A stretch of 64,000 nucleotides of DNA from an uncultured Rhodanobacteraceae bacterium (GCA_937928755.1 CALEZI010000127.1:36098-100097), one strand, 5' to 3'. Counted from the first letter of the stretch, positions 10,480 through 63,923 are shown. Program-made: numbers and translations. The notes: a model not told the origin generated them from the letters alone.

Positions 10480-10491
10480 TGTGTTCGTCCC

Positions 10492-12141: not shown

Positions 12142-12306
12142 CTCGATCTCCCTCTGCGGATCGTCACGATCATAACCAGACGCTGCGGCGGTCGCGCGCG
12201 TACAGTGCTTTGGTGGTCCAGACATTTCTGGGCGCTCTCCCTGCCACCGGGCCAACAGCGTCCAGACCAGTATGGACCCACCAGAGCTCGCGTTCCGATC
12301 AGACGA

Positions 12307-26587: not shown

Positions 26588-28765
26588 ATGACCTTGCGTC
26601 GCCCGTTCGCTGTGATGATGCTTGCGCTATCGCTGTTCGCCTGTGGGCGCGATGCCGGGCAGGAAACCTCAGTACCGTTGGCCAGCGAGTCGGCACAATC
26701 GACTGCGTTTGGCGCCGGGCCCTGGCTGCGCGATCGGTTGCCGGCCGATGCCATTGTCTACGCGCGCCTGCCCAGTCCCTGGCGCAGCGCGCTGGGTCCG
26801 GCCGGCAAGCGCAACGACCGCATGTTTCAAAGTCAGGCATATGTCGATGCCGTGACTCGCATGCGCACTGATCTGGGCAAGGACCCGCTGTCAGGAGAGG
26901 CGGCCGTGCCGCTCGCCGGACTGCTTTACCGCCTCGGATCGCCGGTCGAGATCGCCGTGGTGGCGACTGGCCGCATCGCATCCCCGGCGGCGAACGTCTA
27001 CGCGACGCTGAGCCTCGACTATGCCGACGCGGCAACGCTCGGCAAGGTGCTTGGCGAAGCCATGGGCGGCACGCCGCTGACTTTTGATGCCGATGGGTAC
27101 GCCTCGTTGGCGGACGCGGGCGCACCGGCATTTGTGCATTTCGACGCGGCGGAAAAGCGGCTTTCGGCGTTGGTCGGAATGTACGCCAACCTCGACTCGC
27201 TGAAATCACTGCGCAAGGGCTTCGCCGAAGCCAAGGTCGAGCCGCGCGCAGAACTGGCGCTGGAGCGCGAGATCGACGCGCACGGGGCCGGCCTGGCGAT
27301 CTGGGCCGATGTCGAAGCGCTGCGTCCGATCCTGAGTGCCGGCGTCGCCGACGAAGCAGCGCGCAAGGTGCTGGAGCAGACCAAACGCATCGCGCTGGGT
27401 TGGGGCAGCGTCGATGGCCACGGACGACTCGGACTGCGCGCGGAAATCAGTGGCGCGGCATGGGCAAACTATCTGCCGCAGTCGCCGCGCAAGCTCGATC
27501 TGAAGGCTTCGGGGCGCACGCGCATGCTGCTCAGCGCAAGCTGGTTCACCAGCGACGACATCGCCCGCATCGCCGCTGCGATCAAGCAGGACGAGGATCT
27601 CGCCAAGGGCTGGAACGAGGTCGACGCCAAACTGTCCGAGATCAGCGGTCTGCAGATCACCGACGTGTTTGCGGCCTTCGGTCCGGACCTGGCGGCATTT
27701 TCCGACGACGCCGGCGAGTTCATGGCGATCCGCATTCGCGACAGCGCTGCGCTGGAGCGTCTGCTGTCCACGCTCGGCGAAAAGTTCAAGTCCAAACACA
27801 GTGTCAGCGAGCACGAGGGTCAGAAGATCCACCACCTGCGTTTGCCGAGCATGCTCGAAATCGGCCGCACCATTGGCAAGGATGCGGAAAAGCTGGACGA
27901 CGTCGTCGCCGCGCAGATCTACGCGCGTGCCGGCAGCCACCTGTACTGGATCGAACAGGACGGCTGGCTGATCGTGGCCGGTGTTCCGCAACCGTTGATG
28001 GACCGGCTGGCATTGGGCGCGGATCAACCGCTGGACGAGTTCATGCGCGCTGCAGGGGGCGATCCGACCGCAATGCTCGGCGGCGCTGCGGTGGTCAACG
28101 ACGCCGCTCGGCGCACGTACCACGCTTGGCTCGGCGCGCTGGCCAGCATCGCCGACCTCGGCGGCGTCGAGGTCGACCTGATGCCGTTGCCAACCGCGCG
28201 TCAACTGACGTTGCCGGATGAATCCGCGCTCGGCGCCAGCCTGCATGTGACGCCGACACGCCTGCACCTCGAACTCAATTACGCGCAGCACCCGATGGAA
28301 TGGATCGGCGGCAGCGATGGCCTGACCGTGGTCGCCGTCGGCGGCATACTGGCCGCCATCGCCATCCCGGCCTATCAGGACTACACGCTGCGCGCCGAAG
28401 TCGCCAGCGCCATGATCGAGACCGCTGCGTTGAAGGTGGCGATCGCCGACTACTACGCCGATCAGGCCGAATTGCCGACCGACGCCGAATCGTTGGGGAT
28501 GGAACTGCCGCTGACCACGGCAAGCGGGAAGGCCGAGGTGGATCTGGACAACGGCGCGGTCATCGTGCGGTTCAACGACAGCGCAGGCAGCGGACTGGCC
28601 GGCACCTACCTGTATCTGCTGCCGGCGCAACAAGGCGAGGGGGCCATCACCTGGCTCTGCGGCCATGCGGCCAATGGCGCCGACGACCTGTTGGTCGAAA
28701 TGAGCGAGGACGCCGCGACGACCGACGTGCCGGAGCGCTACCTGCCGGCGTCATGCCGCAGTTGA
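26588..28765 (+). CDS. Chimeric protein: lipoprotein-type signal, ~560-aa domain of unknown function, hydrophobic helix, then a C-terminal type IVa pilin-like globular domain
   Basis: MTLRRPFAVMMLALSLFAC-G signal/lipobox. The C-terminal 148 aa (from 28319) read GLTVVAVGGILAAIAIPAYQDYTLRAEVASAMIETAALKVAIADYY...ITWLCGHAANGADDLLVEMSEDAATTDVPERYLPASCRS. This has the pilin alpha1 and disulfide-loop hallmarks but no G/FTLIE leader. Confidence 0.7.
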   Translation: MTLRRPFAVMMLALSLFACGRDAGQETSVPLASESAQSTAFGAGPWLRDRLPADAIVYARLPSPWRSALGPAGKRNDRMFQSQAYVDAVTRMRTDLGKDPLSGEAAVPLAGLLYRLGSPVEIAVVATGRIASPAANVYATLSLDYADAATLGKVLGEAMGGTPLTFDADGYASLADAGAPAFVHFDAAEKRLSALVGMYANLDSLKSLRKGFAEAKVEPRAELALEREIDAHGAGLAIWADVEALRPILSAGVADEAARKVLEQTKRIALGWGSVDGHGRLGLRAEISGAAWANYLPQSPRKLDLKASGRTRMLLSASWFTSDDIARIAAAIKQDEDLAKGWNEVDAKLSEISGLQITDVFAAFGPDLAAFSDDAGEFMAIRIRDSAALERLLSTLGEKFKSKHSVSEHEGQKIHHLRLPSMLEIGRTIGKDAEKLDDVVAAQIYARAGSHLYWIEQDGWLIVAGVPQPLMDRLALGADQPLDEFMRAAGGDPTAMLGGAAVVNDAARRTYHAWLGALASIADLGGVEVDLMPLPTARQLTLPDESALGASLHVTPTRLHLELNYAQHPMEWIGGSDGLTVVAVGGILAAIAIPAYQDYTLRAEVASAMIETAALKVAIADYYADQAELPTDAESLGMELPLTTASGKAEVDLDNGAVIVRFNDSAGSGLAGTYLYLLPAQQGEGAITWLCGHAANGADDLLVEMSEDAATTDVPERYLPASCRS

Positions 28766-43753: not shown

Positions 43754-46700
43754 ATGAAAAAAAAGCCGCAAATGAAAGCGCTGGTGCTCGGTCTCATGCT
43801 GGGCATCGTTGCCTCGCAAGGAGCCTTCGCGCAATCCACGTCCTCAGCGCTGAACGGACGCGTGACGGACCCTGAAGGCCGTCCAATTGCTGGCGCCACC
43901 GTCGAGGTGCTGCATGTCCCGTCGAACACCCGCAAGTCCGTCGTCACCGACAGCCAGGGTCGCTACAGCACTTCGGGCCTGCGCGTGGGTGGTCCTTACA
44001 AGGTCACGGTGACCAAGGAAGGATTCGCTGGCGAAGCGCAGGACGGCGTCTCGCTGTTGTTGGGCGAAGTGACGGCGTTGAACATCGACCTGGAACCGGC
44101 GATGACCACGCTCGATTCGATCGAAGTCGTGGCCTCGGCACAGAACGAAGTGTTCTCGTCGGAGAAATTCGGCGCCGGAACCAACCTCAACAATGAGGCG
44201 CTGAATGCATTTCCGTCGATCCGGCGCGACCTGCAGGACTACGCCCGCCTGGATCCGCGTATCTCGCAGACCGACAAGGACCGCGGCGAAATCTCGGCGC
44301 TCGGTCAGAATTCGCGCTTCAACTCGGTGACCATCGACTCGGTGTCGACCAACGACACCTTCGGGCTCGAAGCCAACAACCTGCCGACGCTGCGTCAGCC
44401 GATCTCGATGGATGCCATCGAATCGGTGCAGTTGAACGTCGTCAACGTCGATGTCACCCAACGCGGTTACACCGGCGCCAACATCAATGCGGTGACCAAG
44501 TCGGGCACCAACGAATTCTTCGGATCGGTCTACGGCACTTACCGTGATGGCGACTGGGTGCGCGAAGAAGACGACCGCGGCGTGGAGTTCACCGGCTTCG
44601 ACAAGGAAGAGACCTACGGCGGTACCTTTGGCGGTCCGCTGATCGAGGATCGCCTGTTCTTCTTCTTCAACTACGACAAGACCAGGATTTCGGCCCCGGG
44701 TCCGGATCTGGCGAGCGGCCCCTACAACCGCACCGTCAACGGCATCTCCGATGCGCAGTTGCAGGAAGTGATTTCGATCGCGCAGGATGTCTGGGGCATG
44801 ACGCCGGGCGACCTCAATCCGGGGTCGCTCGACACCGAGGTCGAGACCTATCTCGGTCGCTTCGACTGGAACATCACCGACGATCACCGCGCGGCTTTCC
44901 GCTTCAGCAGCACCGAGCAGGCGGAGGCGATCCTGCCCGGCTTCGGCAACAACTTCTTCTCGTTGTCGAGCTACTGGTACACCCAGGAGAAGGAGTTCGA
45001 CAATTACGTGGTGGAAGTGTTCAGCGACTGGAACGAGTCCTTCTCCACCGAAGTGCGCGCGTCCTATCGCGACTATTTCAGCACGCCGCAGACCTTCGCG
45101 CGTCAGCCGCAGGTGCAGGTCGATTTCGGTACCGCCAACATGCGCCTCGGCACCGAGCAGTTCCGCCACGCCAACATCCTCGACACCGAGACCTACAACT
45201 TCTTCGCCGCCGGTAACCTGTTCCTCGGCGACCACACGGTGAAGTTCGGTGCCGATTACGAGAGCAACGAGATCTACAACCTGTTCCTCGAGTCGAACCT
45301 CGGCGTGTACCGTTTCGCCAATACCAACGATTTCCGCAATGGCGTCTACCGCGAATACACCTCGCGCGCATCGACCAGCGGCAATCTCGGCGATGCAGCG
45401 GCAAAACTGGAGCTGGACAACCTCGGGTTCTTCCTGCAGGACACCTGGGCGGTCAACTACAACCTGACGCTGACCTACGGTTTCCGTATCGACACGCCGA
45501 ATGTGGACAAGGCGCCGCCGTTGAACCAGAGCTTCCTGACGGCGTTCGGAATCCGCAACAACACCACCATCGACGGTAACGAGCTGTTCCAGCCGCGCTT
45601 TGGTTTCAACTACAGCTTCGACAGCGAGCGCCCGACGCAATTGCGCGGCGGCCTCGGTCTGTTCCAGGGCTCGGCGGCCAATGTGTGGCTGGCCAATCCG
45701 TACACCAACAATGGACTGTCGATCGCGGTCTTTGGCTGCGGTACCGCGGGTCTGGCCAACTGCCCGACGCCGCGTCCGTCGGTGTTCAATCCGGATCCGG
45801 ACAACCAGCCGCCAGTGGTGGTCGGAAGCGGCGCACCGCCGTCCGACGTCGATATCGTTGCCGACGACCTGCACCAGCCGTCGATCTGGAAGTTCAATCT
45901 CGCGTTCGAGCACGAGCTTCCGTGGTGGGGCATGGTGGCATCGGCCGAAGCGATCATCACCGAGGTTGAAGATGCGGTGTTCTACGAGCACCTTAATCTC
46001 GGCAGCCCGACGCGTCTGGGTCTCGATGGCCGCAACCTGTATTGGGCCAACACGGCGGCTTCGCAGTATCAGACCAACGGCACCTTCAACGGCACCGCGC
46101 GTTCGCGTCGCAACACGGCCTTCCGCGAAGTGCTGCTGGCGCGTCCGACGTCGAAGGGCCACGGCGAGAACTACACGCTGTCGCTGACCAAGCCGATGAC
46201 GGTCGACAGCAACTGGTTCTGGCAGGCGGCCTACTCGTACACCGATGCCACCGAAGTCAACGGCCTGACCTCCAGCCGCGCAATCTCCAACTGGGCCAGC
46301 CGTTCGGTCTTCAACCCGAACGAAGAAATCGCGTCGACGTCGCCGTACATCAACAAGGACCGCTTCATCGGCACGATGAGCTACCGGCACTTCTTCTTCG
46401 AGGGCTACAAGACCGAGTTTGCGATGTTCTATGAAGGTCGTCGTGGCAAGCCGTACAGCTGGACCTTCAACAACGACATGAACGGCGATGGTCTGGCCGG
46501 CAACGACTTGATGTACATCCCGTTGCCAGGGCAGGTGGTGTTCACCGACCCCACCGAAGCGGCAGTGTTCGAGCAGTTGGTGCGCAATTACGGCCTCGAT
46601 CAGTACGCCGGTGGCGTGGTGCCGCGCAACACGGAAACCGCGCCGTGGGTGCACAACTTCGACATCCGTATCTCGCAGGAACTGCCGGGCTTCTTCGCCG

Positions 46701-47540: not shown

Positions 47541-48575
47541 ATGGTGAATATCAGCCTGTTCGGGCGCTTCGTGCCTCTGCAGTCGCTGGTCCCGTCGGAT
47601 CAATCGCAACTCGCCAAGCAAAGCAGTCTGGTCAACTATCAGCCCGGCCAGGTGATTTTCAGCCGTGGCGAACTGGCGCGTACCCAGGCGTTTCTGATCG
47701 ACGGCGAGATCGAGCTGCAGGACGAGCACTCTGCGCGGCGCCTGCGTGCGGCGGATCCCGAATCGCGTTACGCGTTGGCACCCGGACAACGACGTGCGCA
47801 GACCGCGTTGTGTCTGAAACCCGCACAGATCCTGTTCGTCGACCGCGAGTTGCTCGATGTCATGTTGACGTGGTCGCAGACAGGCGGCGTCGAAGTGCGC
47901 GACATCGGCTCCGGCGACAAAGACGACGAATCGCACGACTGGATGACGGCGCTGCTGCAAAGCAAGGCTTTTCTGCGCATTCCGCCCGGCAACATTGCGC
48001 AGATCTTCGCCAGCATGCAGTCGGTGACCTTCGATGCCGGCCAGATCATCCTCAAGCAGGGCGATCCGGGCGATTATTACTACGTGATCACCGAGGGCCG
48101 CGCCCAGGTGGTACTGGAAGATCCCAACGGCAACTCGGAAGAAGAACTGGCGCAGCTCGGCGTTGGTCGCGCTTTTGGCGAGGAAGCGCTGGTGTCCGGA
48201 GAGCCGCGTAACGCCACCGTACGCGCGCTCACCCGCTGTACGCTGATGCGACTGTCCAACGCGGCGTTCGCGCGATTGCTGAAGGCGCCATTGATGCGCG
48301 AAGTGCAGATGAGCGAAATCGCGGGCGATGTGCAGTTGGTGGATGTGCGGTTGGCCAGCGAGTTCGAGCGCGGGCACTGGCCAGGCGCGATCAACGTGCC
48401 TTTGGCGCGATTGCGCGTGCTGGCACAATCACTCGATCCGGCGCGCGAATACTGGGTCTACTGCGACACCGGTCGTCGCAGCGCATCGGCAGTATTCCTG
48501 CTCACCGAACGCGGTTTCGACGCCAAATTGGTGCGCGGTGGCCTCACTGTCGCGCAATTGACCGAAGCCGCGTAG
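47541..48575 (+). CDS. Protein with two cyclic-nucleotide-binding-like domains and a C-terminal rhodanese domain
   Basis: The second cNMP domain is clear (FDAGQIILKQGDPGDYYYVITEGRAQVV...FGEEALVSGEPRNATVRAL). Rhodanese: VDVRLASEFERGHWPGAINVPL...YWVYCDTGRRSASAVFLL. Confidence 0.75.
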   Translation: MVNISLFGRFVPLQSLVPSDQSQLAKQSSLVNYQPGQVIFSRGELARTQAFLIDGEIELQDEHSARRLRAADPESRYALAPGQRRAQTALCLKPAQILFVDRELLDVMLTWSQTGGVEVRDIGSGDKDDESHDWMTALLQSKAFLRIPPGNIAQIFASMQSVTFDAGQIILKQGDPGDYYYVITEGRAQVVLEDPNGNSEEELAQLGVGRAFGEEALVSGEPRNATVRALTRCTLMRLSNAAFARLLKAPLMREVQMSEIAGDVQLVDVRLASEFERGHWPGAINVPLARLRVLAQSLDPAREYWVYCDTGRRSASAVFLLTERGFDAKLVRGGLTVAQLTEAA

Positions 48576-52919: not shown

Positions 52920-55676
52920 ATGACTTCCGAACAACCGTCGACTCTGCAGGCGGCACAGCGACTGTTGCGCGATCTGCGCGCCGGCGACGATGCCCGGCGC
53001 ATCGAGGCGGCGCGACGCATCGAGTCCGATCCGACATTGCGCCAGCACGTCGAGCGCCTGATGGCCGCGACGATCGACTCGCAACCGTCTGCAGGCCACC
53101 CGCCGGACCTGGCAGGGCCGCGACGGGTGGGCGCCTACACGCTGATCGACGAACTCGGCAGCGGCGGCATGGGTGCGGTATTCCTGGCCGAACGCGACGT
53201 CGACGGTACACGGCAGCGCGTGGCGCTGAAGTTGCTGCACGGTATCCCGACCCAGGACGGCCGCCGTCGCTTCGCCCGCGAGCGTGCATTGCTGGCGGGG
53301 CTGAACCATCCGCACATCGCGGCGCTGCTGGACGGCGGCGAGACCGCGGAAGGCCAGCCTTTCCTGGTCATGGAGTACATCGAGGGCGATCCGATCACGC
53401 AGTGGGTGCAGAGCGCCCGGCCGGATCTGGCAAAGCGCCTGCAGACGCTGGTGCGGGTGTGCCGCGCCGTCGAACACGCCCATCAGCGGCTGGTCCTGCA
53501 TCGCGACATCAAGCCCGGCAACATCCTGGTGCGCGCCGACGGCGATCCGGTACTGCTCGACTTCGGCATCGGTCGCGAACTCAGCGACGGCCAGTCGGCG
53601 GACACGGCGACGCTCGTCTTCACGCCGGCCTATGCGGCGCCCGAACAGTTGACCGGCCGCGGCCTGACCACGGCCACCGATGTGTTCGGGCTCGGCGCGG
53701 TGGCCTACGAGGTGCTGAGCGGCGAAAGCCTGACCGAACTTCGTCGCGATGGGTCCAGTTTGCCGCCGCCGAGCGCCACCACGCGCGACCCGCAGATGCG
53801 TGCGGCGCTGCGCGGCGATCTCGACCGGATCACGGCGAAGGCCATGCACTCTGACCCCGAGCGCCGCTACGCGTCGGCGTCGGCACTTGCGGACGATCTG
53901 GAACGATTCCACCAAGGGCGCCCGGTGCTGGCGACGCCGGACAGCCTCGCTTATCGGCTGCGCAAGTTCCTTGGTCGCCACCGTGCCGCGGCCGTCACCG
54001 GTGCGCTGGCGTTGCTGCTGTCTGCCGGATTCGTCTGGCGCCTCGACGTCGAGCGAGATCGCGCGCTCGAGGCCGAGGCCGCGGCCCAGCGCGAGAGCAG
54101 GAGCGCACGCCTTGCGCGCGATTTCCTGGTGTCGGTGTTCGCTTCGGCGTCGCCGCGCGAAACGCTGGGAAAGCCGGTATCGCCGCGCGAGCTGCTCGAC
54201 GGCGCCCGCGAGCGTGTCGAGCGCGAGCTGGGTTCCGATCGGCCTGCCGCCGTGGCGACGTGGATGGCGCTTTCCGACACCTACAACGCGCTCGGCGTGC
54301 CGGAGGCGGCGGCACACGCCGCGGAGCAGGCCTTGCGCCATACCGAAGGCAGCGAAGGCGCCCAGCGCCTGGCGCGCGCCGATGTCATCGAGGCGCTCGG
54401 CGCCGCCTACAACCAGCTCGGCCGTTATCCGGACGCGGCTCCGCTGTACGAAGAACTACTGCGGATCCGTGAGGAGCTGTCGGCGGACGATCCGGTGGCG
54501 CTCGCCAGCAGCTACGGCGAACTCGGCTACGCGGCGCAGAACTACGGCGAATTCCAGCGTTCCGACCAATGGCTGCGGCGCGCACTGGAACTGCTCGACA
54601 GCCAGCGCTCGCGTAATGCAGGAGACGCCGAGGATCGCTGCTATGTGCTTTCTGGCCTGGTCGTGGCGGCCAGCGCGCTCGGCGATCAGCCCGCCGCGCT
54701 GCGCTGGCTGGCGGACGCCGAGGCCGCGTGGGCGAAGCTCGACCCGGATCATCCCGACGGTCTCTACGTGTTGCGTGCACGCGCGCGACTGGCGGAGCTG
54801 CAGGGCCGCTTCGAGGACTCGGTGGCCGACCTGCAGCAGGCGTCCGCGCTGGCGCTGCGGGTCATCGGTGCCGATGCCAGCGTCGTCGCCGGGATCGAGA
54901 ACGATCTGGGCGTTGCGCTGAACGGCCTCGGGCGCTACCGCGAGGCGCTGGTGCACCTGCAGCGGGCGCGCGCGGTGTACCTGCGCCGTGCAGTCAGCGG
55001 CGACGCCAACGTGGCCCACCTGGACGCCAATATCGGCGCCATCTTCGAGAGCATGGGCGACTACGCCCAGGCCATCGATCACGCGCGGCGTGCGCTGGCG
55101 GTGTTCGCCGCGGAAGGCATGGTGGTGGTGGACATGCGCCGTCAGTCGCGCGTGAACCTGGCGCGCGCGCTGAGTTTCGCCGGGCAGCATGCCGAGGCGC
55201 TGGCGGAAATGAGAACGGCGCTGGAGGAGGGCATCGCCAGCGAGGGCAGCGAAAGCCTGACGCACCAGTTGGACCGCTTCCGCCATGCCGGCATCCTGCG
55301 TCGCGCGGGGCAACTCGACGCGGCGTCGGCGGAGCTGGAATCGAGCGCGGCGGCGATTCTCGGCGTCGTCGGCAGCGAGCATCCGCTGAAGCTGCACGTG
55401 TTGCGCTTGCGCGCCCTGATCGCCCGCGATCGCGGCGATGCGCTGGCTGCGACGGCAGAGTTGGAGATGGCTTTGCAGTTCGCCGGCGCGACGGCCGGCG
55501 TCGATCCGGTCGCGACGGCGGAGATCAAGGCCGAGTTGGCCGCACTGTGGAGTGCGACCGATCCCGACCGCGCGCGGCGGCTGGTCGCCGAGGCGCTGCC
55601 GGTGTTGCGCGAGGCGCTGCTGCCGATCGCACCGGCGTTGGTCGCAGCTGAGCGGGTAGAGCGCGCATTGCACTGA
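52920..55676 (+). CDS. Ser/Thr protein kinase with transmembrane segment and C-terminal TPR array
   Basis: Hanks motifs GSGGMGAVFLA, VALKLL, HRDIKPGNIL, DFGIG, TPAYAAPEQ. TM segment AAAVTGALALLLSAGFVW. A long TPR-like C-terminus. 918 aa. Confidence 0.9.
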   Translation: MTSEQPSTLQAAQRLLRDLRAGDDARRIEAARRIESDPTLRQHVERLMAATIDSQPSAGHPPDLAGPRRVGAYTLIDELGSGGMGAVFLAERDVDGTRQRVALKLLHGIPTQDGRRRFARERALLAGLNHPHIAALLDGGETAEGQPFLVMEYIEGDPITQWVQSARPDLAKRLQTLVRVCRAVEHAHQRLVLHRDIKPGNILVRADGDPVLLDFGIGRELSDGQSADTATLVFTPAYAAPEQLTGRGLTTATDVFGLGAVAYEVLSGESLTELRRDGSSLPPPSATTRDPQMRAALRGDLDRITAKAMHSDPERRYASASALADDLERFHQGRPVLATPDSLAYRLRKFLGRHRAAAVTGALALLLSAGFVWRLDVERDRALEAEAAAQRESRSARLARDFLVSVFASASPRETLGKPVSPRELLDGARERVERELGSDRPAAVATWMALSDTYNALGVPEAAAHAAEQALRHTEGSEGAQRLARADVIEALGAAYNQLGRYPDAAPLYEELLRIREELSADDPVALASSYGELGYAAQNYGEFQRSDQWLRRALELLDSQRSRNAGDAEDRCYVLSGLVVAASALGDQPAALRWLADAEAAWAKLDPDHPDGLYVLRARARLAELQGRFEDSVADLQQASALALRVIGADASVVAGIENDLGVALNGLGRYREALVHLQRARAVYLRRAVSGDANVAHLDANIGAIFESMGDYAQAIDHARRALAVFAAEGMVVVDMRRQSRVNLARALSFAGQHAEALAEMRTALEEGIASEGSESLTHQLDRFRHAGILRRAGQLDAASAELESSAAAILGVVGSEHPLKLHVLRLRALIARDRGDALAATAELEMALQFAGATAGVDPVATAEIKAELAALWSATDPDRARRLVAEALPVLREALLPIAPALVAAERVERALH

Positions 55677-55680
55677 CCCC

Positions 55681-55716
55681 AACGAGAAAGGCGCGCTTTC
55701 GCGCGCCTTTCTCGTT
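55681..55716. terminator. Bidirectional hairpin between the convergent kinase and porin genes
   Basis: aacgagaaaggcgcgc-tttc-gcgcgcctttctcgtt (16-bp perfect stem). No clear T-tract on either strand. Confidence 0.6.
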
Positions 55717-55732: not shown

Positions 55733-58069
55733 TCAGAAGCGATATCCGACACTGAAGGTGGTCACCCACACATCGTAATCGGGGCTGCTTCCACCCATGC
55801 TGATGACGTTGGCCATCTGGTTGGGCGGGGCGTTGTCGACCGCCCAGTCGGTGGAGTCGAACTGCTCGTAAGCGAAGCGCAGGCGGAACACGATGTTGCG
55901 GCGCCAGGCGTAGTCGCCGTACAGGCTCGCCGAAGTCAGATCGCTCACCGAGGTTGGCAATGGACGCGCTGTGAGACCCGATCCAACCGTGGTGTAGACA
56001 TCGGAATCGGCTGCGGAATCCACCCAGTCGAAGCCCAGCGTCAGCTTGTCTTCGAGCAGTTTGGTATTGATGCCCGCGCCCCAGGTGAACACGTGATCGC
56101 GACTCCTGACGTTCCAGCTGCGTGCGGGGTCGTAGATCTGCGTACCGCGGGTTGCGCCGCCGAAAGAGGAACCATCCTGGTCGTTCTTGTAACGTTCCTC
56201 GGAGGCAAACGCATAGGCCGTGAGTCCCGCACGCGGTGCCCAGGCGACGTCGACATTGTAGGCACTGACGCGCGAGAAGGTCAGGCCTTTCAGGGAGTTG
56301 TTGTAGTCGTCTTCGGCGTAACTCACGCTGGCGCTGAGCGAGACTTCTTCCACCGGCATGAAGCTGGCATAGATTTCACCGTCGAGACGTTCACGATCGG
56401 CCTGGTTGAACTTGCGCAGGTCCGGGTGATTCTCGAACGGGAAACCGTCGACGAAGGGCACCACGTTGTTGTAGTAGCCCGGCGAATAACCACCGATGAA
56501 TGTGGTGTAGCCCAGGTACTCGCTGCCGCCGTCGCGATCGGAACTGCTCATGCGCAGTCCACCACTGACGTAGCCGCCGGTGTCCACCGCAAAGTTCAAC
56601 GTGTAGAGATCCTCTTCGATCTCTTCGCGTTCCTGATGCGGACGCTCGGTCTGGCGCCAACGCGCTTCGCCGGTGACCCGCAGCCAATCGCTGGCATTCC
56701 AGTTGGCGTCGAGCTTGAAGTACTGGTCTTCATAGCTCTTCGGTTCGTTGATGCGCCGCTGGATGCTGGTCAACCCGGTGTTCTGAGCCAGCGAATCGCC
56801 ACCGATGTAGACGAACTCATGATGATGCGTCTTGTTGTCGCGTTCGTCGTACTTGTAGCTGGCGCCGAGTGCCAAAGTATCGAAAGGCCTGGTCGTGAAT
56901 TTCAGCGCGATGTGCGTGGTGTCGACTTCGCCATCGAGCGAGTTCACCGGCAGCGGCTGGGTGATCGTCGCCGCCAGCAGCGGGTTGATCGTGTACGGCA
57001 GGAAAGCCTGGTCCTGGGTGCCGCGGCCGAACGAAACCACGCCGCTGAGACGAGTGGTCCTGGAGAAATTCCAGCCGCCGCTCAGATTCAACTGGTGGAA
57101 ATCGTTGTCCGGTTCCAGGTGCATCTGCCCCTGACCGTTCGGATAACCCACCTGCGCGGTCGGCGTCCAGCCGTTGATGCTGGAGTAGGGGTTCTGCCAC
57201 ACCAGCGAGTTGTTGCCGTTCTCGAAGAACGAACCGTAATAGCCGAAGGTGAGCTGCTTGGTGCTGTCGGCATAACTCAACACGGCGTCGACCGTGCGCG
57301 TTTCATAGTCCACCGGCTCCGGGGCAATGACCGCGCGCGGATTGCCGCCGGAATTGCCATGAGTCAGTGCGATGGTCTTGTTGCCGTCCTTCTGTTCCAG
57401 GTTGTAGTTGACCTCGAAGTTCCAGCCCGACAGGAAGTTGACGTCGCCGCCGATGTCGAAGCGCTCGCGCTCGTGTTCGATGGCGAAGGTGCGCAGGTTC
57501 GGCACCAGTTGCGTCATCGTCGCCGTGTTCTGGCCGGGTACCCAGCCTGCCGGCAGCGTCAGGTTGGTACTGCCCGCACCGTTGAAGATGGTCTGCGTAT
57601 CGTCGAGCTGGTAGTGGGGAATCTGGTCGAAACCAATGTGGAAATTCCACGCGCCTTGTCGGCCCGCCTCGAAGAGGATGTCGCGCGAATCGATGCCGAG
57701 GTTGCGCCCGGTCAGGCGCCAATAACCGGCATCGTCGCCATCCCACGGACCACGGCTGTAGATGTCGAGATTGACGACCGGAAACAGGCCGTCGTCCTCG
57801 AGGCCGGTATAGCGGCCGAAGCGGTAGGAGGGGTTGGACACGTTGCCGATTCCGACTTCGACATAGTTCTTCACCACAGTCTGCTCTTCGAGCAGCAGTG
57901 AGCTTTCGTCTTCTTCGTCGTCGGCTTCGTCGGCGTCCTGGGCGCTCAAGCTACCGCTGGCCAGGGCGGCGGCAAACACCGAAGCCCATATTGCACCGTG
58001 GAAAAGAACATTGCCGCGGAAAAGGCTCTCGCGAATGGCCTTGCTCAGCAATTTGTGCTGGTTGTTCAT
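55733..58069 (-). CDS. MtrB/PioB-family outer-membrane beta-barrel (decahaem-associated porin)
   Basis: 778 aa. Signal, then an acidic stretch (AQDADEADDEEDE). YRFGRYTGL...GYWRLTGRNLGIDSRD...FDQIPHY with alternating beta-strand character, ending in the terminal aromatic FSVGYRF. It lies immediately downstream of the decahaem gene. There is no Cys anywhere in the protein. Confidence 0.8.
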   Translation of the reverse strand: MNNQHKLLSKAIRESLFRGNVLFHGAIWASVFAAALASGSLSAQDADEADDEEDESSLLLEEQTVVKNYVEVGIGNVSNPSYRFGRYTGLEDDGLFPVVNLDIYSRGPWDGDDAGYWRLTGRNLGIDSRDILFEAGRQGAWNFHIGFDQIPHYQLDDTQTIFNGAGSTNLTLPAGWVPGQNTATMTQLVPNLRTFAIEHERERFDIGGDVNFLSGWNFEVNYNLEQKDGNKTIALTHGNSGGNPRAVIAPEPVDYETRTVDAVLSYADSTKQLTFGYYGSFFENGNNSLVWQNPYSSINGWTPTAQVGYPNGQGQMHLEPDNDFHQLNLSGGWNFSRTTRLSGVVSFGRGTQDQAFLPYTINPLLAATITQPLPVNSLDGEVDTTHIALKFTTRPFDTLALGASYKYDERDNKTHHHEFVYIGGDSLAQNTGLTSIQRRINEPKSYEDQYFKLDANWNASDWLRVTGEARWRQTERPHQEREEIEEDLYTLNFAVDTGGYVSGGLRMSSSDRDGGSEYLGYTTFIGGYSPGYYNNVVPFVDGFPFENHPDLRKFNQADRERLDGEIYASFMPVEEVSLSASVSYAEDDYNNSLKGLTFSRVSAYNVDVAWAPRAGLTAYAFASEERYKNDQDGSSFGGATRGTQIYDPARSWNVRSRDHVFTWGAGINTKLLEDKLTLGFDWVDSAADSDVYTTVGSGLTARPLPTSVSDLTSASLYGDYAWRRNIVFRLRFAYEQFDSTDWAVDNAPPNQMANVISMGGSSPDYDVWVTTFSVGYRF

Positions 58070-58099: not shown

Positions 58100-59038
58100 T
58101 CAGCGCGTGAAGCGCGGGCCGGACGGATGGTTGGAACCGTGCACTTCACCGTGACAGTTCATGCAGTTCTTGTGCAGCATCTGCTGCGCGCCGGAAGGCC
58201 GCGTCGCGCCGGGCAGACCGGTTCCGCTGTAGGCCGTGCTCGGGTGCTGGTTGGCAAGATGGCAGGTCTGGCACAGCCAGGGCCCGCGCTGCTTGAGCAT
58301 GCCGGTGTGTATCGACCCGTGCGGCGAATGGCAGATGGTGCAGTCCTCCGTCACCGGCTGGTGTTCCCAGAGCATCGGGCCGCGCTTGTCGGCATGGCAG
58401 TTGTTGCAGGTTTCATTGACCGTGTTCTTGACCAGATTGCCCTGGCTCATGGAGCCGTGCGGATTGTGGCAACCGGTGCAAGTCATTTCGCCTTCACGAA
58501 TCGGATGGCGGAAGGGCTTGGTCATGGCGGCGCGCTGGTCCTGGTGACAGGTCAGGCAGACGTCCGCCTGCAGCGTCTTGTCGAGCACCGGGTCCTGAGC
58601 GACGTGCGTGTTATGGCAGTCGGCGCATGCCAGATTCTCGGTTTCGTGGCGACTGCCTTGCCAATGCATCAGTTGCTTGCCGTTGTGGCAGCTCTGACAC
58701 TGGCCATTGCCAATGCTCGTGTCCTTTTCTTCGAAGGTCACATCGGGCGGCAGCGAGTCGTCGTCGAGATGAGACTGGCTCGGTCCGTGACAACTGGTGC
58801 AGGCGTCATTGGCCATCGGCGTGCGGCTGTCGGCGACGACGCCATGTTTGGTCATGAGGATCGACAGCACTGGGTGCTCCGACTCCTCGTCATGGCAGCG
58901 GACGCATTTTTTGTATCCCGGGTCGTCCGCGCCGACCTTGTCTTGCGCAGTGGCCGTCGAGCCGGCGAGCAGCGCTCCGGCCAGCAGGAACAATCCTGTC
59001 AGCAGCGCCCCATGAGCTCGTTTCCTGTACGTCCGCAT
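58100..59038 (-). CDS. Decahaem c-type cytochrome, MtrA/DmsE/MtoA/PioA family
   Basis: Ten CXXCH motifs (CVRCH, CTSCH, CQSCH, CADCH, CLTCH, CTGCH, CNNCH, CTICH, CQTCH, CMNCH) in ~312 aa. Signal MRTYRKRAHGALLTGLFLLAGALLAG. ATG 59038 follows AAGGAGGAG. Confidence 0.9.
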   Translation of the reverse strand: MRTYRKRAHGALLTGLFLLAGALLAGSTATAQDKVGADDPGYKKCVRCHDEESEHPVLSILMTKHGVVADSRTPMANDACTSCHGPSQSHLDDDSLPPDVTFEEKDTSIGNGQCQSCHNGKQLMHWQGSRHETENLACADCHNTHVAQDPVLDKTLQADVCLTCHQDQRAAMTKPFRHPIREGEMTCTGCHNPHGSMSQGNLVKNTVNETCNNCHADKRGPMLWEHQPVTEDCTICHSPHGSIHTGMLKQRGPWLCQTCHLANQHPSTAYSGTGLPGATRPSGAQQMLHKNCMNCHGEVHGSNHPSGPRFTR

Positions 59039-59306
59039 GATCTCCTCCTTGTGACTCTGCATCAGAAACTTGATAAATCGGCGCCAATCCTGATCTACCG
59101 CGTCTGGACCTCACCGGTCATTCGCTACCTGCCGCACGAGAATCCGCAGCGCTGCCGCGGCTTCCCCAAATCCTCTTCTGCCCGTCGGAACATCATCACC
59201 GTGGCGCAATTGCATGCCTGAATCTGATTGCGCGGCCATGGGACGAATGCTCCGGTGCTCAAGCTTTGATGTTGCCCTAGCCTGAACCGCAGCGGATGCC
59301 GAAGTA

Positions 59307-59320
59307 TTGATCGAAGTCAA
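59307..59320. promoter_or_regulatory. FNR/CRP-family-type box TTGATCGAAGTCAA upstream of the decahaem cytochrome gene
   Basis: TTGAT-N4-GTCAA, 269 bp upstream of ATG 59038 in the 511-bp spacer. Confidence 0.45.
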
Positions 59321-59508
59321 TGCAGTGTGAATACGCGAGCGCGCCTCACAGCGCCCAAACGGGTACCGCGTTGCGTCGGTGCGCCTCTGCCGTGGGAGCA
59401 ATACAAGGAGGTGGGATTGCCGGCGAGATGGGGGTGTTGCGGTGGTCGGTCCGGGCCGGGTCCGGACGAGTTCGTGCGTCGCCGATTCTGGAACGAATCG
59501 GGAACGCA

Positions 59509-59532
59509 GAGCGGACCCCGCAGGGTCCGCTC
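59509..59532 (-). terminator. Hairpin just downstream of the monohaem cytochrome gene (possible terminator/attenuator)
   Basis: gagcggaccc-cgca-gggtccgctc (10-bp stem), 18 nt after the stop. No strong U-tract on the minus strand. Confidence 0.4.
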
Positions 59533-59549
59533 ATTGCCTTCTTTTCAGG

Positions 59550-59891
59550 TCAGTGCGACAACAACCACTGTGCCAGGTTCTTCAGTTCGGCCTGGTCGGT
59601 GGTCTTGATCTTCTTGTGCTTTTCCTTTTCGCCATCGATCTCGATTTCCGGGCCGGTGGTGATTGCCGTGATCACCAACTGCTCTGCGTCGGGCTTGCCC
59701 TTGAGATCTGCCGCCATCTTCTTCAGCGACGGTCCCGACTTGTCCTTCGTGGCGTGATGACAACCACCGCATTTGTTGCTCTTCATCAGCTTTTCGGCTG
59801 CCTTCGCATCGATCTCGGCGTAGGCGGGATTCAGTCCCGCAAAGGCGAGAAACAACGAGCCGGCGAGAATCAGGGAAACGGACTGGTTCAT
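59550..59891 (-). CDS. Monohaem class I c-type cytochrome (c551/c8-like fold), periplasmic
   Basis: Signal MNQSVSLILAGSLFLAFAGLNPAYA. KSNKCGGCHHATKDKSGPSLKKMAADLKG aligns by eye with c551 [29 protein letters not shown]. C-terminal helix ELKNLAQWLLSH. Strong RBS AAGGAGGA. Confidence 0.8.
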   Translation of the reverse strand: MNQSVSLILAGSLFLAFAGLNPAYAEIDAKAAEKLMKSNKCGGCHHATKDKSGPSLKKMAADLKGKPDAEQLVITAITTGPEIEIDGEKEKHKKIKTTDQAELKNLAQWLLSH

Positions 59892-60051
59892 GGGTTCCTC
59901 CTTGGTTGAGCGGTGATCGCTGCCATACGCAGAGTGGTGCGGTAGCGGAATCGATCAGTCGACAGTGTACGACGAGGCAACGTCGGCACAGCCATCGCCG
60001 ATCATCCTACACCGCACAGATGAACCGTAGCGGCGACCCTGGCCATGAGTG

Positions 60052-60065
60052 TTGATCGCTGTCAA
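60052..60065. promoter_or_regulatory. FNR/CRP-family-type box TTGATCGCTGTCAA upstream of the monohaem cytochrome gene
   Basis: TTGAT-N4-GTCAA, 161 bp upstream of ATG 59891. TACGGT (minus strand, 60029..60024) lies ~32 bp from the box centre. Confidence 0.5.
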
Positions 60066-60247
60066 CGTCCGCGCGACCGGCGCGGCGTAACTTGTCGGCC
60101 GTGCGCCCGGAGATCCTCGCGTAGCCGTTGTGGATACTTTGCCTTCGCCCGGCTTGCGGCGGCTACACTGAGGTAGAGTTGTCAAGATCCCCATGCGAGC
60201 ACTGATCGTCCGATGCGATCGAACATTTGACTACGGAAGACCTGACA

Positions 60248-60403
60248 ATGTCGAAGCTGATTGCGCGGTTGAAACAAATCATCCTGTTCCTGCTGTCGCC
60301 ATTCATCGCGTTGGCGTACATGGCAGCGTTTCCGGGCGTCGCGCTGAAGATGCTGGTATCCGGGAATACGGGCGATACTGAGGGTCGCGGCGGCAGCGCC
60401 TGA
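60248..60403 (+). CDS. Possible 51-aa small membrane protein (below the ORF-track size cut-off)
   Basis: MSKLIARLKQIILFLLSPFIALAYMAAFPGVALKMLVSGNTGDTEGRGGSA: one hydrophobic helix and GC3-rich codons. Weak RBS; opposite strand to the surrounding cytochrome genes. Confidence 0.3.
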   Translation: MSKLIARLKQIILFLLSPFIALAYMAAFPGVALKMLVSGNTGDTEGRGGSA

Positions 60404-60526
60404 CAGGGTGCAGGCCGTCGGTTTGTGCGTGCTTCCGCCCTCGGCGGGAGTGTGCTGCACTGCGGGAGTCTGTGCCGCAGCGTTCCGATGCGTATCTTCG
60501 CCCGTGCGTTTGTTCGCGCATCGAAC

Positions 60527-60580
60527 CTGTGGGAGCGGGTTTATCCCGCGAAAGCGCTCGCGGAGTAAGTCCGCTCCCAG
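60527..60580. repeat. Second REP type (single copy in this window), immediately 3' of the cytochrome b gene
   Basis: ctgtgggagcgggtttatcccgcgaaagcgctcgcggagtaagtccgctcccag. Outer inverted repeat tgggagcgg/ccgctccca and inner cccgcga/tcgcgg. Confidence 0.65.
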
Positions 60581-60583
60581 GCC

Positions 60584-61240
60584 TCAGCGAACGTCCGGTG
60601 CGTCAGTCTTTGCGACGGGTTCGTCGTCGACCTCTTCGTATCCGGTGATCATGCCCTTGGTGTGCGCGCCGAAGGTGTGGCCAAGGGTGACCAGATACAG
60701 ATGGGTCATCAGGAACCCGATGAAGGCGATGGTCAGCAACATGTGCACGGTCGAAATCACGCGCAGCCCGCCGAACATCTCGATCTGGCCGGCGAATCCG
60801 ACCGAATCCCACAGCAATACACCGGTGTAGAACTGCAACGGCAGCATCACCAGCATGACGATCTGGTAGGTCATCGCCTGCATCGGATTGAACTTCTTCT
60901 CAGGCGTGACCCGAAATGGATTGCGCTCGCCGTGCAGGATTCCCCAGGCGTAGAAGTACGCTTGCCGATACATGGCCGGGAAGTATTTGCTCGGACTCAG
61001 CTCGGGTTGATAGACGGAAATCTTGTTCGAGAAGAAGTAGAAAAACAGCCACAACAGGAAATTGGCGCCGACGAAAAAACCGACCCAATTGTGCAGCACC
61101 ACCGCATCACGGAAGGTCATCACATCAAACAGGCCTGCGTAGCGGATCTGCAGTCCGGTAAGGATCAACAACAAGATCCCCAACGCGTTGAGCCAATGCC
61201 AGATCCTGACCGGCAGCGGATGGATGTAAATCTTGCGCAT
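60584..61240 (-). CDS. Cytochrome b561 / HydC-FdnI-type membrane dihaem cytochrome b
   Basis: MRKIYIHPLPVRIWHWLNALGILLLILTGLQIRY (family N-terminal motif). Four predicted TM helices with conserved His (HW, HNW, VHMLL, THLY). ATG 61240 follows AGGAGAG; the track ORF starts 18 codons earlier. Confidence 0.8.
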   Translation of the reverse strand: MRKIYIHPLPVRIWHWLNALGILLLILTGLQIRYAGLFDVMTFRDAVVLHNWVGFFVGANFLLWLFFYFFSNKISVYQPELSPSKYFPAMYRQAYFYAWGILHGERNPFRVTPEKKFNPMQAMTYQIVMLVMLPLQFYTGVLLWDSVGFAGQIEMFGGLRVISTVHMLLTIAFIGFLMTHLYLVTLGHTFGAHTKGMITGYEEVDDEPVAKTDAPDVR

Positions 61241-61303
61241 GATGCTCTCCTGCCAATTCTGAAGTCGCGTTAGGGCTTGCGCCGCTGGTTGCATTCGGAC
61301 CGG

Positions 61304-62656
61304 CTATTTCCCATCGCGTTCACGGAGCTTTGCTTCGGCCTTTTCGCGAGCACGGCGAAACAGCCATCTGGCGACAATGTGTACCAGCAGACCGGCGGCC
61401 ATGCCGGCGACAACCAGCAGCAGCAGGTAGTCGAACAGTTTGATGCGGGTGCTGCCGAGCACATAGAAACCTTTCACGGCGTCGATCGAGAACAGCGAGT
61501 TGAGGACTTCGCTGCGGACTTCATGACGCAACGGTCGGCCGTCAGGCCCAGCCATGCTCAGGACCACGGTCTGGAAGGGTTCTGCGCCAGACTGGTGACA
61601 AAGTTTGCAGTCGCTGATTGCTTCGGACTTGGCCGCCAACTGGTGCGCCTGAACGCCAGAAGTGACCTCAAGGCGCCCGCGGACGACGGTCTTGCTCTCG
61701 CCGGCTTCCTCAGTGAATTCTTTCAACAGGCTCAGAAGTTCGCGGTCGCCCAGTCCGGTTCCGTCGGCATCGGCTGCCCTGGCACTCTTGACGAATTGCG
61801 GCACGCCGGTCTTCTCCAGCATCTGCTTCTGGTCTTTGCCGGTGCCCTCATACAGTCGCAGGTTGACTCTGCGCTCCGCGGTCGGTGCGTGGCAAACCGG
61901 GCAGGAGATCGCCTCGAAATGGCGTTCGCTGTTGGGTAGCCAGACCTTGTGCTTTTCGGCGGCGTCCTCGTGACAGTCGAGACAGGTATCCCGGATGCCA
62001 CTGCCCAGGGACGCTGCCTTCACGCCGTGCGCCTGGTGGCAGCCCGAGCAGACCGGCGCCTTGCTGTCCTTGTCTGCCTGCGCCAGACCGTGCACGTCTT
62101 TTGCCGATGCTTCGAAGATGGCTTCGTGGCACTTGCCGCACGGCATCGCGGCTTCGGGTTCGGCAAGTTCCCACGAGGTCACCGTGTGGGGGTTGTGGCA
62201 ATCCGCGCACATCGGCGCCTTTTCGTTGCCTTGCGCGATCAGCAGCGCGTGTACGCTGTCATCGTATTCGCGATACTTCTTCTTGTGGCAGTCGCGACAC
62301 GAGTCGCCCATCGAAACGCCGAGTTCGCGCTTGCTGGTGATGGTCGACTGACCCTGACCATGGTCTTCGATGTCGATTTCGTAGTGGCAGTCGGTGCAAC
62401 TGTTTTCGTTGTGCATCGAACCAAGGAAGGCTTCGGTCGAGATGTGCAATGACAGGGTCTCGCCACTTTCCAGCTTGGTCGAAAGCTTTGGATCGTCGTG
62501 GCACTCGAGACACGCAAGATCCTCTTCAGCGAGTTCGATCTCGTCTTCGGCGTCTTCGTCTTGCGCCAACGCCAGCATGGGGGCTGAGATCAGCAAAGCG
62601 AGTACGCCAGCCAACAGCCAGTTCCAGGGTCGCGATGCAGGAGAGGGCGTATTCAT
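61304..62656 (-). CDS. Nonahaem c-type cytochrome with signal peptide and single C-terminal TM anchor
   Basis: Nine CXXCH motifs (CLECH, CTDCH, CRDCH, CADCH, CGKCH, CSGCH, CLDCH, CPVCH, CKLCH). Signal WNWLLAGVLALLISAPMLALA. C-terminal helix LFDYLLLLVVAGMAAGLLVHIVARWLF followed by basic residues. Confidence 0.85.
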   Translation of the reverse strand: MNTPSPASRPWNWLLAGVLALLISAPMLALAQDEDAEDEIELAEEDLACLECHDDPKLSTKLESGETLSLHISTEAFLGSMHNENSCTDCHYEIDIEDHGQGQSTITSKRELGVSMGDSCRDCHKKKYREYDDSVHALLIAQGNEKAPMCADCHNPHTVTSWELAEPEAAMPCGKCHEAIFEASAKDVHGLAQADKDSKAPVCSGCHQAHGVKAASLGSGIRDTCLDCHEDAAEKHKVWLPNSERHFEAISCPVCHAPTAERRVNLRLYEGTGKDQKQMLEKTGVPQFVKSARAADADGTGLGDRELLSLLKEFTEEAGESKTVVRGRLEVTSGVQAHQLAAKSEAISDCKLCHQSGAEPFQTVVLSMAGPDGRPLRHEVRSEVLNSLFSIDAVKGFYVLGSTRIKLFDYLLLLVVAGMAAGLLVHIVARWLFRRAREKAEAKLRERDGK

Positions 62657-62782
62657 CGACGATTCCAGATAGTGGGTTTGTTTTGCTGCAGTCCAGCGGC
62701 ACTGCTGCGTCGAACTTGCTGCCGATCATCCACTGCAACCCGCGCCAGACACGGACTGTGCGGGAACCGTGAAGGCCGCATG

Positions 62783-62796
62783 TTGAGCATAGTCAA
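62783..62796. promoter_or_regulatory. FNR/CRP-family-type box TTGAGCATAGTCAA in the divergent region between the nonahaem cytochrome and the MenA-like gene
   Basis: TTGAG-N4-GTCAA, 127 bp upstream of ATG 62656 (minus) and 162 bp upstream of ATG 62958 (plus). Confidence 0.45.
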
Positions 62797-62957: not shown

Positions 62958-63923
62958 ATGACCGCGCAACTCGTCGCTCCCGGCGTCTCTGGTCTGCAGG
63001 GCGAACCAAATGCGGATGCGCTGCGCAATCCGCTGCGGCGCTACTTCCTGGCTACTCGACCGCCATTCGTGACGCTTACACTGGTCGGTTGCCTGCTGGG
63101 CATCGCGACCGCACACGCCGACGGCATTTCGATCAACCTATTGACGGCGGTTGCCACGGTCATGCTGGGCGTAACCCTGAACGCCGCAGTCAACGTCCAC
63201 AACGACTATTGCGATCACATGAATGGCACCGACGCGTTGAACACCGCGCGCGTCTTTCCGTTCACCGGGGGCTCGCGCTTCATCCAGAACGGTGTGCTGA
63301 CGCCGCGCGCCACCTTGCTGTTCGCACGCGCCTTGTTCGCGCTCACCATCGCCGGCGGACTCGCACTCTGCGCTTGGGTGGGATCCGGATTGCTCTGGAT
63401 CGGACTCTGGGGCGTGTTCGTGGGCTGGGCTTACTCGGCGCCGCCACTGCAAATGAACAGCCGCGGACTCGGGGAAATCTGTGTCGCATTGACCTTCGCA
63501 CTGGTCGTGGTTGGCGCCGATTTCGTTCAGCGCGGCAGTCTCGGCGCCACTCCGATCTGGGCCAGTGTCGGATACGCGTTGTTGACCACCAATGTCCTCT
63601 ACATCAATCAGTTTCCTGATCGCGACGCCGACCTGGCGGCGGGCAAGCGTCACTGGGTCGCGCGCATGCCGGTGTCGCAGGCGCGTTGGGGATATCTCAT
63701 CATCGTGGTCCTTGGCTTGCTGGCGATGGCGCTGCCGGTGTTGCTCGGCGCGCTTCCGCCCGGCGCAGCGCTGGGCATGATCGCACTCGTGCCTGCGGCA
63801 ACTGCGGCAGTCGGCCTGTTGCGTTTCGCGACCATGCCAAAGCAGCTGGCGCCGGCGATCAAGATGACCATCGCCGCGGCACACATCGCGGCGGTCGCGA
63901 TGAGCGTCGGATTGTGGCTGTGA
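62958..63923 (+). CDS. UbiA-superfamily prenyltransferase, MenA-like (1,4-dihydroxy-2-naphthoate polyprenyltransferase-type motifs)
   Basis: 321 aa, ~8-9 TM. NVHNDYCDHMNGTDA (NDYxDxxxGxD) and YINQFPDRDADLAAGKRHWV (second Asp-rich motif), which resemble E. coli MenA NLANDYGDAVKGSD / NINNLRDINSDRENGKNTL. Confidence 0.7.
   Translation: MTAQLVAPGVSGLQGEPNADALRNPLRRYFLATRPPFVTLTLVGCLLGIATAHADGISINLLTAVATVMLGVTLNAAVNVHNDYCDHMNGTDALNTARVFPFTGGSRFIQNGVLTPRATLLFARALFALTIAGGLALCAWVGSGLLWIGLWGVFVGWAYSAPPLQMNSRGLGEICVALTFALVVVGADFVQRGSLGATPIWASVGYALLTTNVLYINQFPDRDADLAAGKRHWVARMPVSQARWGYLIIVVLGLLAMALPVLLGALPPGAALGMIALVPAATAAVGLLRFATMPKQLAPAIKMTIAAAHIAAVAMSVGLWL

Follow-up and report, generated by a model that had tools for sequence, protein, structure and literature searches.

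Putative class II FNR-type boxes precede the three transcription units of a porin–cytochrome cluster in an uncultured Rhodanobacteraceae bacterium

Results

A porin–cytochrome cluster arranged in three units

Within a 64,000-nucleotide stretch of DNA from an uncultured Rhodanobacteraceae bacterium (GCA_937928755.1 CALEZI010000127.1:36098-100097; hereafter the window, by which we mean the whole stretch), a set of cytochrome genes together with a porin gene forms a cluster, and three short palindromes of the form TTGA-N6-TCAA, similar to binding sites of the regulator FNR, lie between these genes. All cytochrome genes are located on the minus strand and fall into three hairpin-delimited units, each preceded by one box. 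A first-pass annotation of the same DNA had proposed both this layout and the identities of the genes; CXXCH counts and Pfam/NCBIfam profiles agree with it for the cytochrome cluster as well as for the neighboring MenA-like gene, and the strong hairpins at the unit ends back its placement of one box ahead of each unit.

The first unit (A) comprises the gene for a nonahaem c-type cytochrome (61304..62656, minus strand; nine CXXCH motifs and a C-terminal membrane helix) and that for a cytochrome b561-type, PhsC-like membrane subunit (60584..61240, minus; 218 amino acids (aa) from the start chosen by gene callers). Together, the two products are presumed to form an inner-membrane quinol/quinone-coupled module. 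Unit B is a single gene encoding a periplasmic monohaem class I cytochrome c (59550..59891, minus), which may fill an MtoD-like role. In unit C, the gene for a periplasmic decahaem cytochrome of the DmsE/MtrA/PioA family (58100..59038, minus; ten CXXCH motifs, called as 312 aa; TIGR03508 275.7 bits against a cut-off of 192.2) is separated by 30 nt from that for an outer-membrane porin of the MtrB/PioB family (55733..58069, minus; PF11854 481.6 bits, TIGR03509 449.7 bits against a cut-off of 240). The start of the decahaem gene is probably 59038, preceded by the Shine-Dalgarno sequence AAGGAGGAG. A DmsE/MtrA-family decahaem protein adjoining an MtrB/PioB-family porin is what characterizes conduits of the MtrAB/PioAB/MtoAB type.

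The partition into three transcription units is well supported, because strong hairpins directly follow the cytochrome b stop (60524..60583, minus; an inverted repeat, -40.5 kcal/mol, z -4.0), the monohaem stop (59502..59541, minus; -40 kcal/mol, z -5.8) and the porin gene (a terminator hairpin at 55681..55716, minus; -41.7 kcal/mol, z -6.4). Divergent from unit A, the gene for a UbiA-family, MenA-like prenyltransferase occupies 62958..63923 on the plus strand.

Three intergenic FNR-type boxes

The boxes are all intergenic and lie exactly where they had been annotated: box 1 (TTGATCGAAGTCAA) at 59307-59320, box 2 (TTGATCGCTGTCAA) at 60052-60065 and box 3 (TTGAGCATAGTCAA) at 62783-62796. Read on the minus strand, box 1 is TTGACTTCGATCAA toward the decahaem gene, box 2 is TTGACAGCGATCAA toward the monohaem gene, and box 3, with unit A on one side and the divergent MenA-like gene on the other, is TTGACTATGCTCAA toward the cytochrome genes. 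Each departs from the FNR consensus TTGAT-N4-ATCAA at one or two positions at most.

How unusual is such a set? TTGA-N6-TCAA occurs five times in the window against 0.33 expected, and none of 100 dinucleotide-preserving shuffles reached five. The rough estimate made beforehand was well under one occurrence per 64 kb; the GC content is 64% and not the ~70% that had been assumed. The earlier count of three fell short of the total of five, while the claim that the other sizeable intergenic regions contain no further copy stands, both additional copies being intragenic. In the ~7.7 kb of intergenic DNA, three copies were observed where a first-order Markov analytic estimate predicts 0.058 (Poisson P(>=3) = 3e-5). 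The stricter form shared by all three boxes, TTGA(T/G)-N4-GTCAA, had also been pointed out; a search with TTGAK-N4-GTCAA returns three matches in the window against 0.07 expected.

The additional copies lie at 11366-11379, inside a gene for a methyl-accepting chemotaxis protein (MCP), and at 44432-44445, inside a gene for a CarboxypepD_reg/beta-barrel outer-membrane protein. We rejected a functional role for either: they are intragenic, have a lower matrix score and lack a -10 hexamer at class II distance, and are probably chance matches. When all window positions on both strands were scored with a matrix trained solely on the boxes of other genomes, the three boxes took ranks 1-3 (box 1 best, box 2 second, box 3 third), and each achieved its highest score in the orientation of the cytochrome genes. 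We also tested the boxes for membership in a dispersed repeat or mobile element; they belong to none.

Conservation of box position and orientation

Related loci were gathered by scanning genomes and metagenomes with the decahaem protein as query. This yielded syntenic clusters in metagenome-assembled genomes (MAGs) labeled Rhodanobacteraceae, Lysobacterales or 'Xanthomonas sp.' and in metagenome contigs. In three-way alignments, the boxes form conserved islands within intergenic DNA of otherwise 55-59% mean identity, and a box precedes the decahaem-carrying unit in 12 of 13 related lineages. Box 1 was found in all nine lineages covering the region (with an identical sequence in L001, L009 and L010), and box 2 in every orthologue that covers it. 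Orthologous sites of box 3 (TTGTCTATGATCAA in L001, TTGTCCGCGATCAA in L002, TTGATGCGGATCAA in L003 and TTGCGCCTGATCAA in L028) show it to be kept with one degenerate half-site.

For a closer view, 17 sites were aligned, anchored on the box and drawn from the three box classes, each of them represented by four to seven lineages. In the direction of the downstream gene, their consensus is TTGAC-NNNG-ATCAA, with TTGAC as the distal and ATCAA as the proximal arm and with a G immediately before the latter in 16 of the 17 sites. The half-site base that separates the two families of sites makes TTGA the FNR type and GTGA the CRP type; as T1, T2 and G3 are present in every aligned site, the half-site is TTGA, that is, of the FNR and not the CRP type.

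The orientation of the box relative to its downstream gene is constant, including at loci where the gene is inverted or the quinol module swapped. In L013, for instance, the monohaem gene is inverted and two boxes stand back to back, the TTGAC arm of each distal to its own gene. As for the module, the nonahaem/cytochrome b type occurs in the window, L001, L002 and L028, and a second type, composed of a NapC/CymA-type tetrahaem cytochrome and an EB_dh-domain protein, occurs in L003 (8339-9921) and L029-L033, followed by the same decahaem/porin pair. In L003, L030, L031/L032 and L033, which have this replacement, the whole cluster constitutes one operon with a single upstream box.

A -10-like hexamer at fixed distance from each box

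At box positions 37-42, all three window boxes are followed by a hexamer of the form nAnnnT. Two of these had been recorded before and were confirmed at their coordinates, namely TACGGT at box 2 (60029..60024, minus strand; TACCGT, TAATCT, TAGCGT, TAGTGT and TATCGT in orthologues) and CACAGT at box 3 (62760..62755, minus; orthologues CACGCT, GAGATT, CACACT and CACATT). The third, CAGGCT at box 1 (59284..59279, minus; orthologues CAGCCT, CAGGCT, CAGCGT and AACCTT), has the same spacing and was absent from the first-pass annotation. Across the 17 aligned sites, A38 and T42 are invariant and carry 2.47 bits each, the strength of the box core itself, the spacer positions 20-35 carry ~0 bits, and position 49 is a purine in 16 sites. 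In a wider set, both A38 and T42 are kept in 23 of 24 sites.

The center of the box and the center of the -10 are ~32 bp apart. If transcription starts 7 nt past the hexamer, a -10 at positions 37-42 puts the box center at -41.5, which would correspond to class II FNR geometry. The sequence 16-18 nt upstream of each -10 matches TTGACA at no more than 2/6 positions, leaving no acceptable -35 element at any of the three boxes, and a sigma-70 scan did not call the class II promoters there. Predicted start sites on the minus strand are near 59272 for box 1, 60017 for box 2 and 62748 for box 3, and the box 1 transcript would have a leader of ~234 nt. A search of the long leaders for known RNA elements gave no Rfam family above threshold. 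Around the predicted box 1 start, 3' of the -10, the string (A/T)AG(C/G)CAACAT (59265-59278, minus) is kept across lineages and may represent a start-site or leader element.

On its other side, box 1 is accompanied by a TTCAC(A) element (59326..59331, minus), situated 6 nt upstream and conserved in seven of eight lineages. Here, the sigma-70 scan calls TTCACA (59331..59326)-17-AATACT (59308..59303), with 9/12 matches, box 1 filling the spacer and AATACT lying at the 3' edge of the box. TTCAC is also present ~10 bp downstream of box 3 (62769-62773, minus) in the window, L001 and L002.

Boxes were additionally seen in betaproteobacterial loci, where a separate TTGAC-N4-ATCAA box accompanies every tandem gene for a ~900-aa decahaem lipoprotein with 9-10 CXXCH (at 1455, 4622 and 7869 in L006 and at 2779 and 7365 in L007, both Sterolibacterium MAGs; at 3428 in L019 and 2848 in L020, both metagenome contigs). 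Positions 37-42 of these sites read GAAAAT, GAGAAT, TAATCT or TAATGT. With a box and hexamer of their own at these lipoprotein genes, the same promoter design thus serves unrelated cytochrome genes.

Divergent genes at boxes 2 and 3

Box 2 separates the monohaem gene from a divergent 51-aa open reading frame (ORF) for a predicted single-helix membrane protein (60248..60403, plus strand; beginning MSKLIARLKQIILFLLSPFIALAYMAAFPGVALKML) that matched no family in Pfam. It is conserved beside the monohaem gene in at least eight related loci, always divergent and always with box 2 in between (conserved in L001, L002, L009-L012 and L014; annotated by gene callers in L021-L023 and L028). Facing this small ORF, box 2 has another -10-like hexamer, TAACTT (60088..60093, plus) at positions 37-42, and six lineages have TAnnnT at positions 36-41 or 37-42, with TACGTT, TAGGAT, TAAGCT, TAGATT and TAGACT as orthologue hexamers at 36-41. 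Box 2 is probably bidirectional, serving the monohaem gene as well as the 51-aa ORF, with a predicted plus-strand start near 60100 for the latter.

The MenA side of box 3 has no conserved -10 at class II distance. L001, L003, L010 and the P0012 contig have the MenA-like gene next to the cluster, whereas L002 does not; the product scores below every NCBIfam MenA cut-off. Also beside the cluster are one or two S-adenosylmethionine (SAM) methyltransferases, one of them, in L030, being UbiE-like (these MenA-like and methyltransferase neighbors lie at 62958-63923, plus, in the window, at 11146-12758 in L021, at 566-2160 in L028 and at 3485-4174 in L030). Such neighbors hint at a dedicated quinone for the conduit.

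Other genes of the window

Convergent with the porin gene, 52920-55676 (plus) encodes a Ser/Thr protein kinase of 918 aa that includes a long TPR region; beside the cluster, it was otherwise seen only in contigs from the same organism (L008, L021). Two ORFs of ~730 aa, at 26567-28765 (plus) in the window and at 10657-12843 (minus) in L028, have as their sole Pfam match a Pilin domain at the extreme C-terminus, an architecture unusual for a pilin; in L028, the product is 728 aa long according to gene callers and its gene is close to the cytochrome cluster. At 3399-12255 (minus), a Wsp-like chemosensory cluster encodes an MCP, CheW, CheR, CheW, a hybrid CheA with receiver, CheB and a response regulator with GGDEF output.

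Discussion

What might coordinate the three units of this cluster? We propose that each box is a site bound by a dimeric CRP/FNR-superfamily regulator whose specificity is of the FNR type (half-site TTGAY). Located ~41.5 bp upstream of the start, at a sigma-70 promoter with a -10 and without a -35 element, such a site would define a class II, activator-dependent promoter. One regulator would then switch on three units together, and thereby co-activate the nonahaem/cytochrome b pair as the quinol module of the inner membrane, the monohaem cytochrome as the carrier in the periplasm, and the outer-membrane conduit of decahaem cytochrome and porin. Through its other face, box 2 would probably also switch on the small conserved membrane protein. 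The likeliest signal would be oxygen limitation, sensed by an iron-sulfur protein of the FNR/Anr type.

How much of this does the evidence support? We estimate a probability of roughly 80% that the boxes are class II sites of a CRP/FNR-family activator, judging from their sequence, spacing and conservation; granted this, the chance that the regulator is a direct oxygen sensor is about even. We infer that a CRP/FNR protein binds the boxes and activates from them, with oxygen as the signal. The earlier suggestion that FNR/CRP-type boxes in class II geometry join the cluster into one regulon has gained support, in that every prediction of it that could be tested at the sequence level held. Overall, this appears to be a real low-oxygen-style switch, well supported as far as sequence goes and conventional in its mechanism.

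Characterized systems offer close parallels. Of 23 promoters activated by FNR in Escherichia coli, 19 have their site at -41.5 +/- 4, and the consensus is TTGATnnnnATCAA (PMC3688515). The class II promoters among them (dmsA, narG, nirB, nrfA; PMC3688515) resemble the present ones in their dyad, which is within one mismatch of TTGAT-N4-ATCAA and centered at ~-41.5 (a predicted position here), the absence of a -35, the dependence on an activator (likewise predicted here) and the nature of their targets, redox proteins of the anaerobic-respiration type. In contrast to the E. coli sites, however, the distal arm is consistently TTGAC here, and not TTGAT, with the G before the proximal ATCAA in 16/17 sites as a further difference. 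In Shewanella oneidensis MR-1, cAMP-CRP controls omcA and mtrC from TGTGA-type sites in class I position (-61.5 and -60.5; PMC4417206); this likewise places a CRP/FNR-superfamily activator directly on Mtr-type conduit genes with separate promoters inside the cluster, whereas half-site (TTGA) and position (class II) differ in our case. For box 2, the bidirectional Fnr/Dnr sites between nirS and nosR2 of Dinoroseobacter shibae, verified by reporter mutagenesis (PMC5398030), provide a precedent for what we propose, one dyad serving two divergent promoters at class II distance, although the targets there are denitrification genes and the case for box 2 rests on conserved -10 hexamers on both sides.

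The nearest relative is pioABC of Rhodopseudomonas palustris TIE-1, where FixK binds TTGA-N6-TCAA at -44.5 and is needed for anoxic induction of a transcript with a 177-nt leader, as established by Bose and Newman through transcription start site mapping, box deletions, a fixK mutant and electrophoretic mobility shift assays (PMC3050613). The target is homologous (a PioA/MtrA-family decahaem cytochrome together with a PioB/MtrB porin), the two systems share their box, the distance is of class II (-44.5 there, a predicted ~-41.5 here), a recognizable -10 goes with a poor -35, and the leader is long (177 nt there, a predicted ~234 nt here). The differences are equally clear. Control of pioABC has been proven experimentally, while that of the window genes is deduced from sequence; it employs two boxes for one operon in an alphaproteobacterial phototroph, as opposed to one box for each of three units, with a fourth, divergent promoter being probable, in uncultured Gammaproteobacteria of the Xanthomonadales type; and the partner genes (nonahaem/cytochrome b, monohaem c) are not the same. 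Literature searches yielded no paper linking MtoA/MtoB-type clusters with FNR, and nothing on this regulon when Xanthomonadales, Rhodanobacter or Stenotrophomonas were combined with FNR or MtoA.

Several observations weigh against control by a CRP/FNR-family activator as outlined above. No transcription factor of this family is encoded anywhere in the 64 kb of the window, in the flanking ~5-10 kb on each side or at the related loci. A tblastn search of window and loci with E. coli FNR and CRP probes returned only a tandem cNMP-binding/rhodanese protein, and Pfam scans of essentially all credible ORFs gave no protein combining cNMP-binding with helix-turn-helix domains. The sole cNMP-domain protein of the window (47541-48575, plus) has two cyclic-nucleotide-binding domains and a rhodanese domain, without a DNA-binding domain. 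The cluster of L029, a Rhodanobacter sp. MAG, has no box, meaning that the wiring is not universal; the L033 site lacks T42; and at box 3, either half-site is degenerate in some lineage. Finally, the TTCAC and AATACT elements around box 1 could form an overlapping promoter that is repressed by binding at the box, a point to which we return below.

Two further sightings belong to these loci. A gene similar to that of the cNMP-domain protein is present in L001 at ~13158-13409, a few kb from the cluster. Upstream of the cymA-type gene of L029, at ~4090-4110, we noticed a perfect palindrome, AACATAC-N6-GTATGTT, which suggests rewiring to another regulator.

Which regulator would act at the boxes? 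The motif alone cannot separate FNR/Anr from FixK or Dnr, given that the Dnr site reportedly cannot be told apart from an Anr box (PMC5398030) and that FixK has TTGA-N6-TCAA as its box (PMC3050613). Sites and class II mechanism could thus be exactly as proposed and yet be operated by a protein that does not sense oxygen itself, be it FixK under a FixLJ-like cascade, a nitric oxide (NO) sensor of the Dnr/NnrR type or an FNR-like paralogue, in which case the regulon would answer to micro-oxia via a cascade, to NO and denitrification or to another cue. Among the alternatives we take this one most seriously, while holding it, regulator and cue alike, to be clearly on the less probable side. For this gene family, experimental proof exists in a single case, FixK at pioABC (PMC3050613), the TTGAC-N4-ATCAA boxes fit the FixK box equally well, a Dnr site was reported to be indistinguishable from an Anr box (PMC5398030), and the source of the DNA is bioreactor sludge, in which denitrification is common. 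Nothing in the sequence favors this over FNR/Anr, however, and window and flanks showed neither a FixLJ pair nor a Dnr gene; a PAS kinase and a receiver-only protein to the left of the window are without output domain.

A second alternative concerns the outcome of binding. The protein at box 1 might mainly be a repressor or promoter switch that shuts the TTCACA-17-AATACT promoter and, possibly, at the same time activates the class II promoter located 24 bp downstream. TTCAC is kept in seven of eight lineages and AATACT in most, and FNR-repressed promoters whose sites overlap core elements are known from E. coli (PMC3688515). Yet this could apply to box 1 alone; L013 has neither element but keeps both the box and the downstream -10; the hexamer of L002 is AATATC, with the T at the sixth position lost; A16 recurs in each of the three box classes, so that part of AATACT may belong to extended recognition of the site; and box 1 equals the other boxes in the strength of its downstream A38/T42 signal. 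We consider a mainly repressive or switching role at box 1 unlikely.

Less probable by a good margin is that the boxes belong to an unrelated dimeric factor with a TTGA...TCAA outline, or that TTCAC-N6-TTGAC at box 1 is a direct repeat for a response regulator. The starts of TTCAC and TTGAC are 11 bp, one helical turn, apart, and the search for a regulator yielded no candidate; against this stands that conservation covers both arms of the 5+4+5 dyad, in each of the three box classes and in distant lineages as well, that a fixed 32-bp distance from center to -10 combined with an absent -35 is the specific signature of class II CRP/FNR promoters (PMC3688515), and that TTCAC accompanies only box 1, and box 3 at a different distance. 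Chance occurrence of a short AT-rich palindrome, the explanation that fits the two non-functional-looking exact matches inside genes, is already refuted for the three boxes by comparative data, with sites conserved, oriented and positioned in 12/13 lineages in addition to a P of about 3e-5 for three intergenic matches, and can safely be dropped.

Bacteria of the Xanthomonadales type are usually treated as aerobic ubiquinone users. Taken together, our results can be extended to a broader, tentative picture that we regard as doubtful in its entirety. The cluster might constitute a compact and portable low-oxygen regulon for extracellular electron transfer in such bacteria, in which one dimer site per unit would co-induce the conduit, the quinol module, the small membrane protein and possibly, via box 3, the MenA-like gene and with it a different quinone; box 1 would shut the overlapping TTCACA-17-AATACT promoter and turn on the class II promoter 24 bp downstream.

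None of this changes what is known of FNR-type regulation itself. What it adds is a concrete regulatory model for porin–cytochrome conduits in uncultured Gammaproteobacteria of sludge and subsurface, complete with candidate promoters, predicted transcript starts and bases to mutate. The model would extend the single experimentally studied case, FixK at pioABC, to another bacterial class and to a three-unit layout. Across lineages, the box stays with the cluster while the quinol-oxidizing module behind it is exchanged. For annotation, the combined signature of box plus -10 could point to genes of electron conduits with expression under oxygen scarcity.

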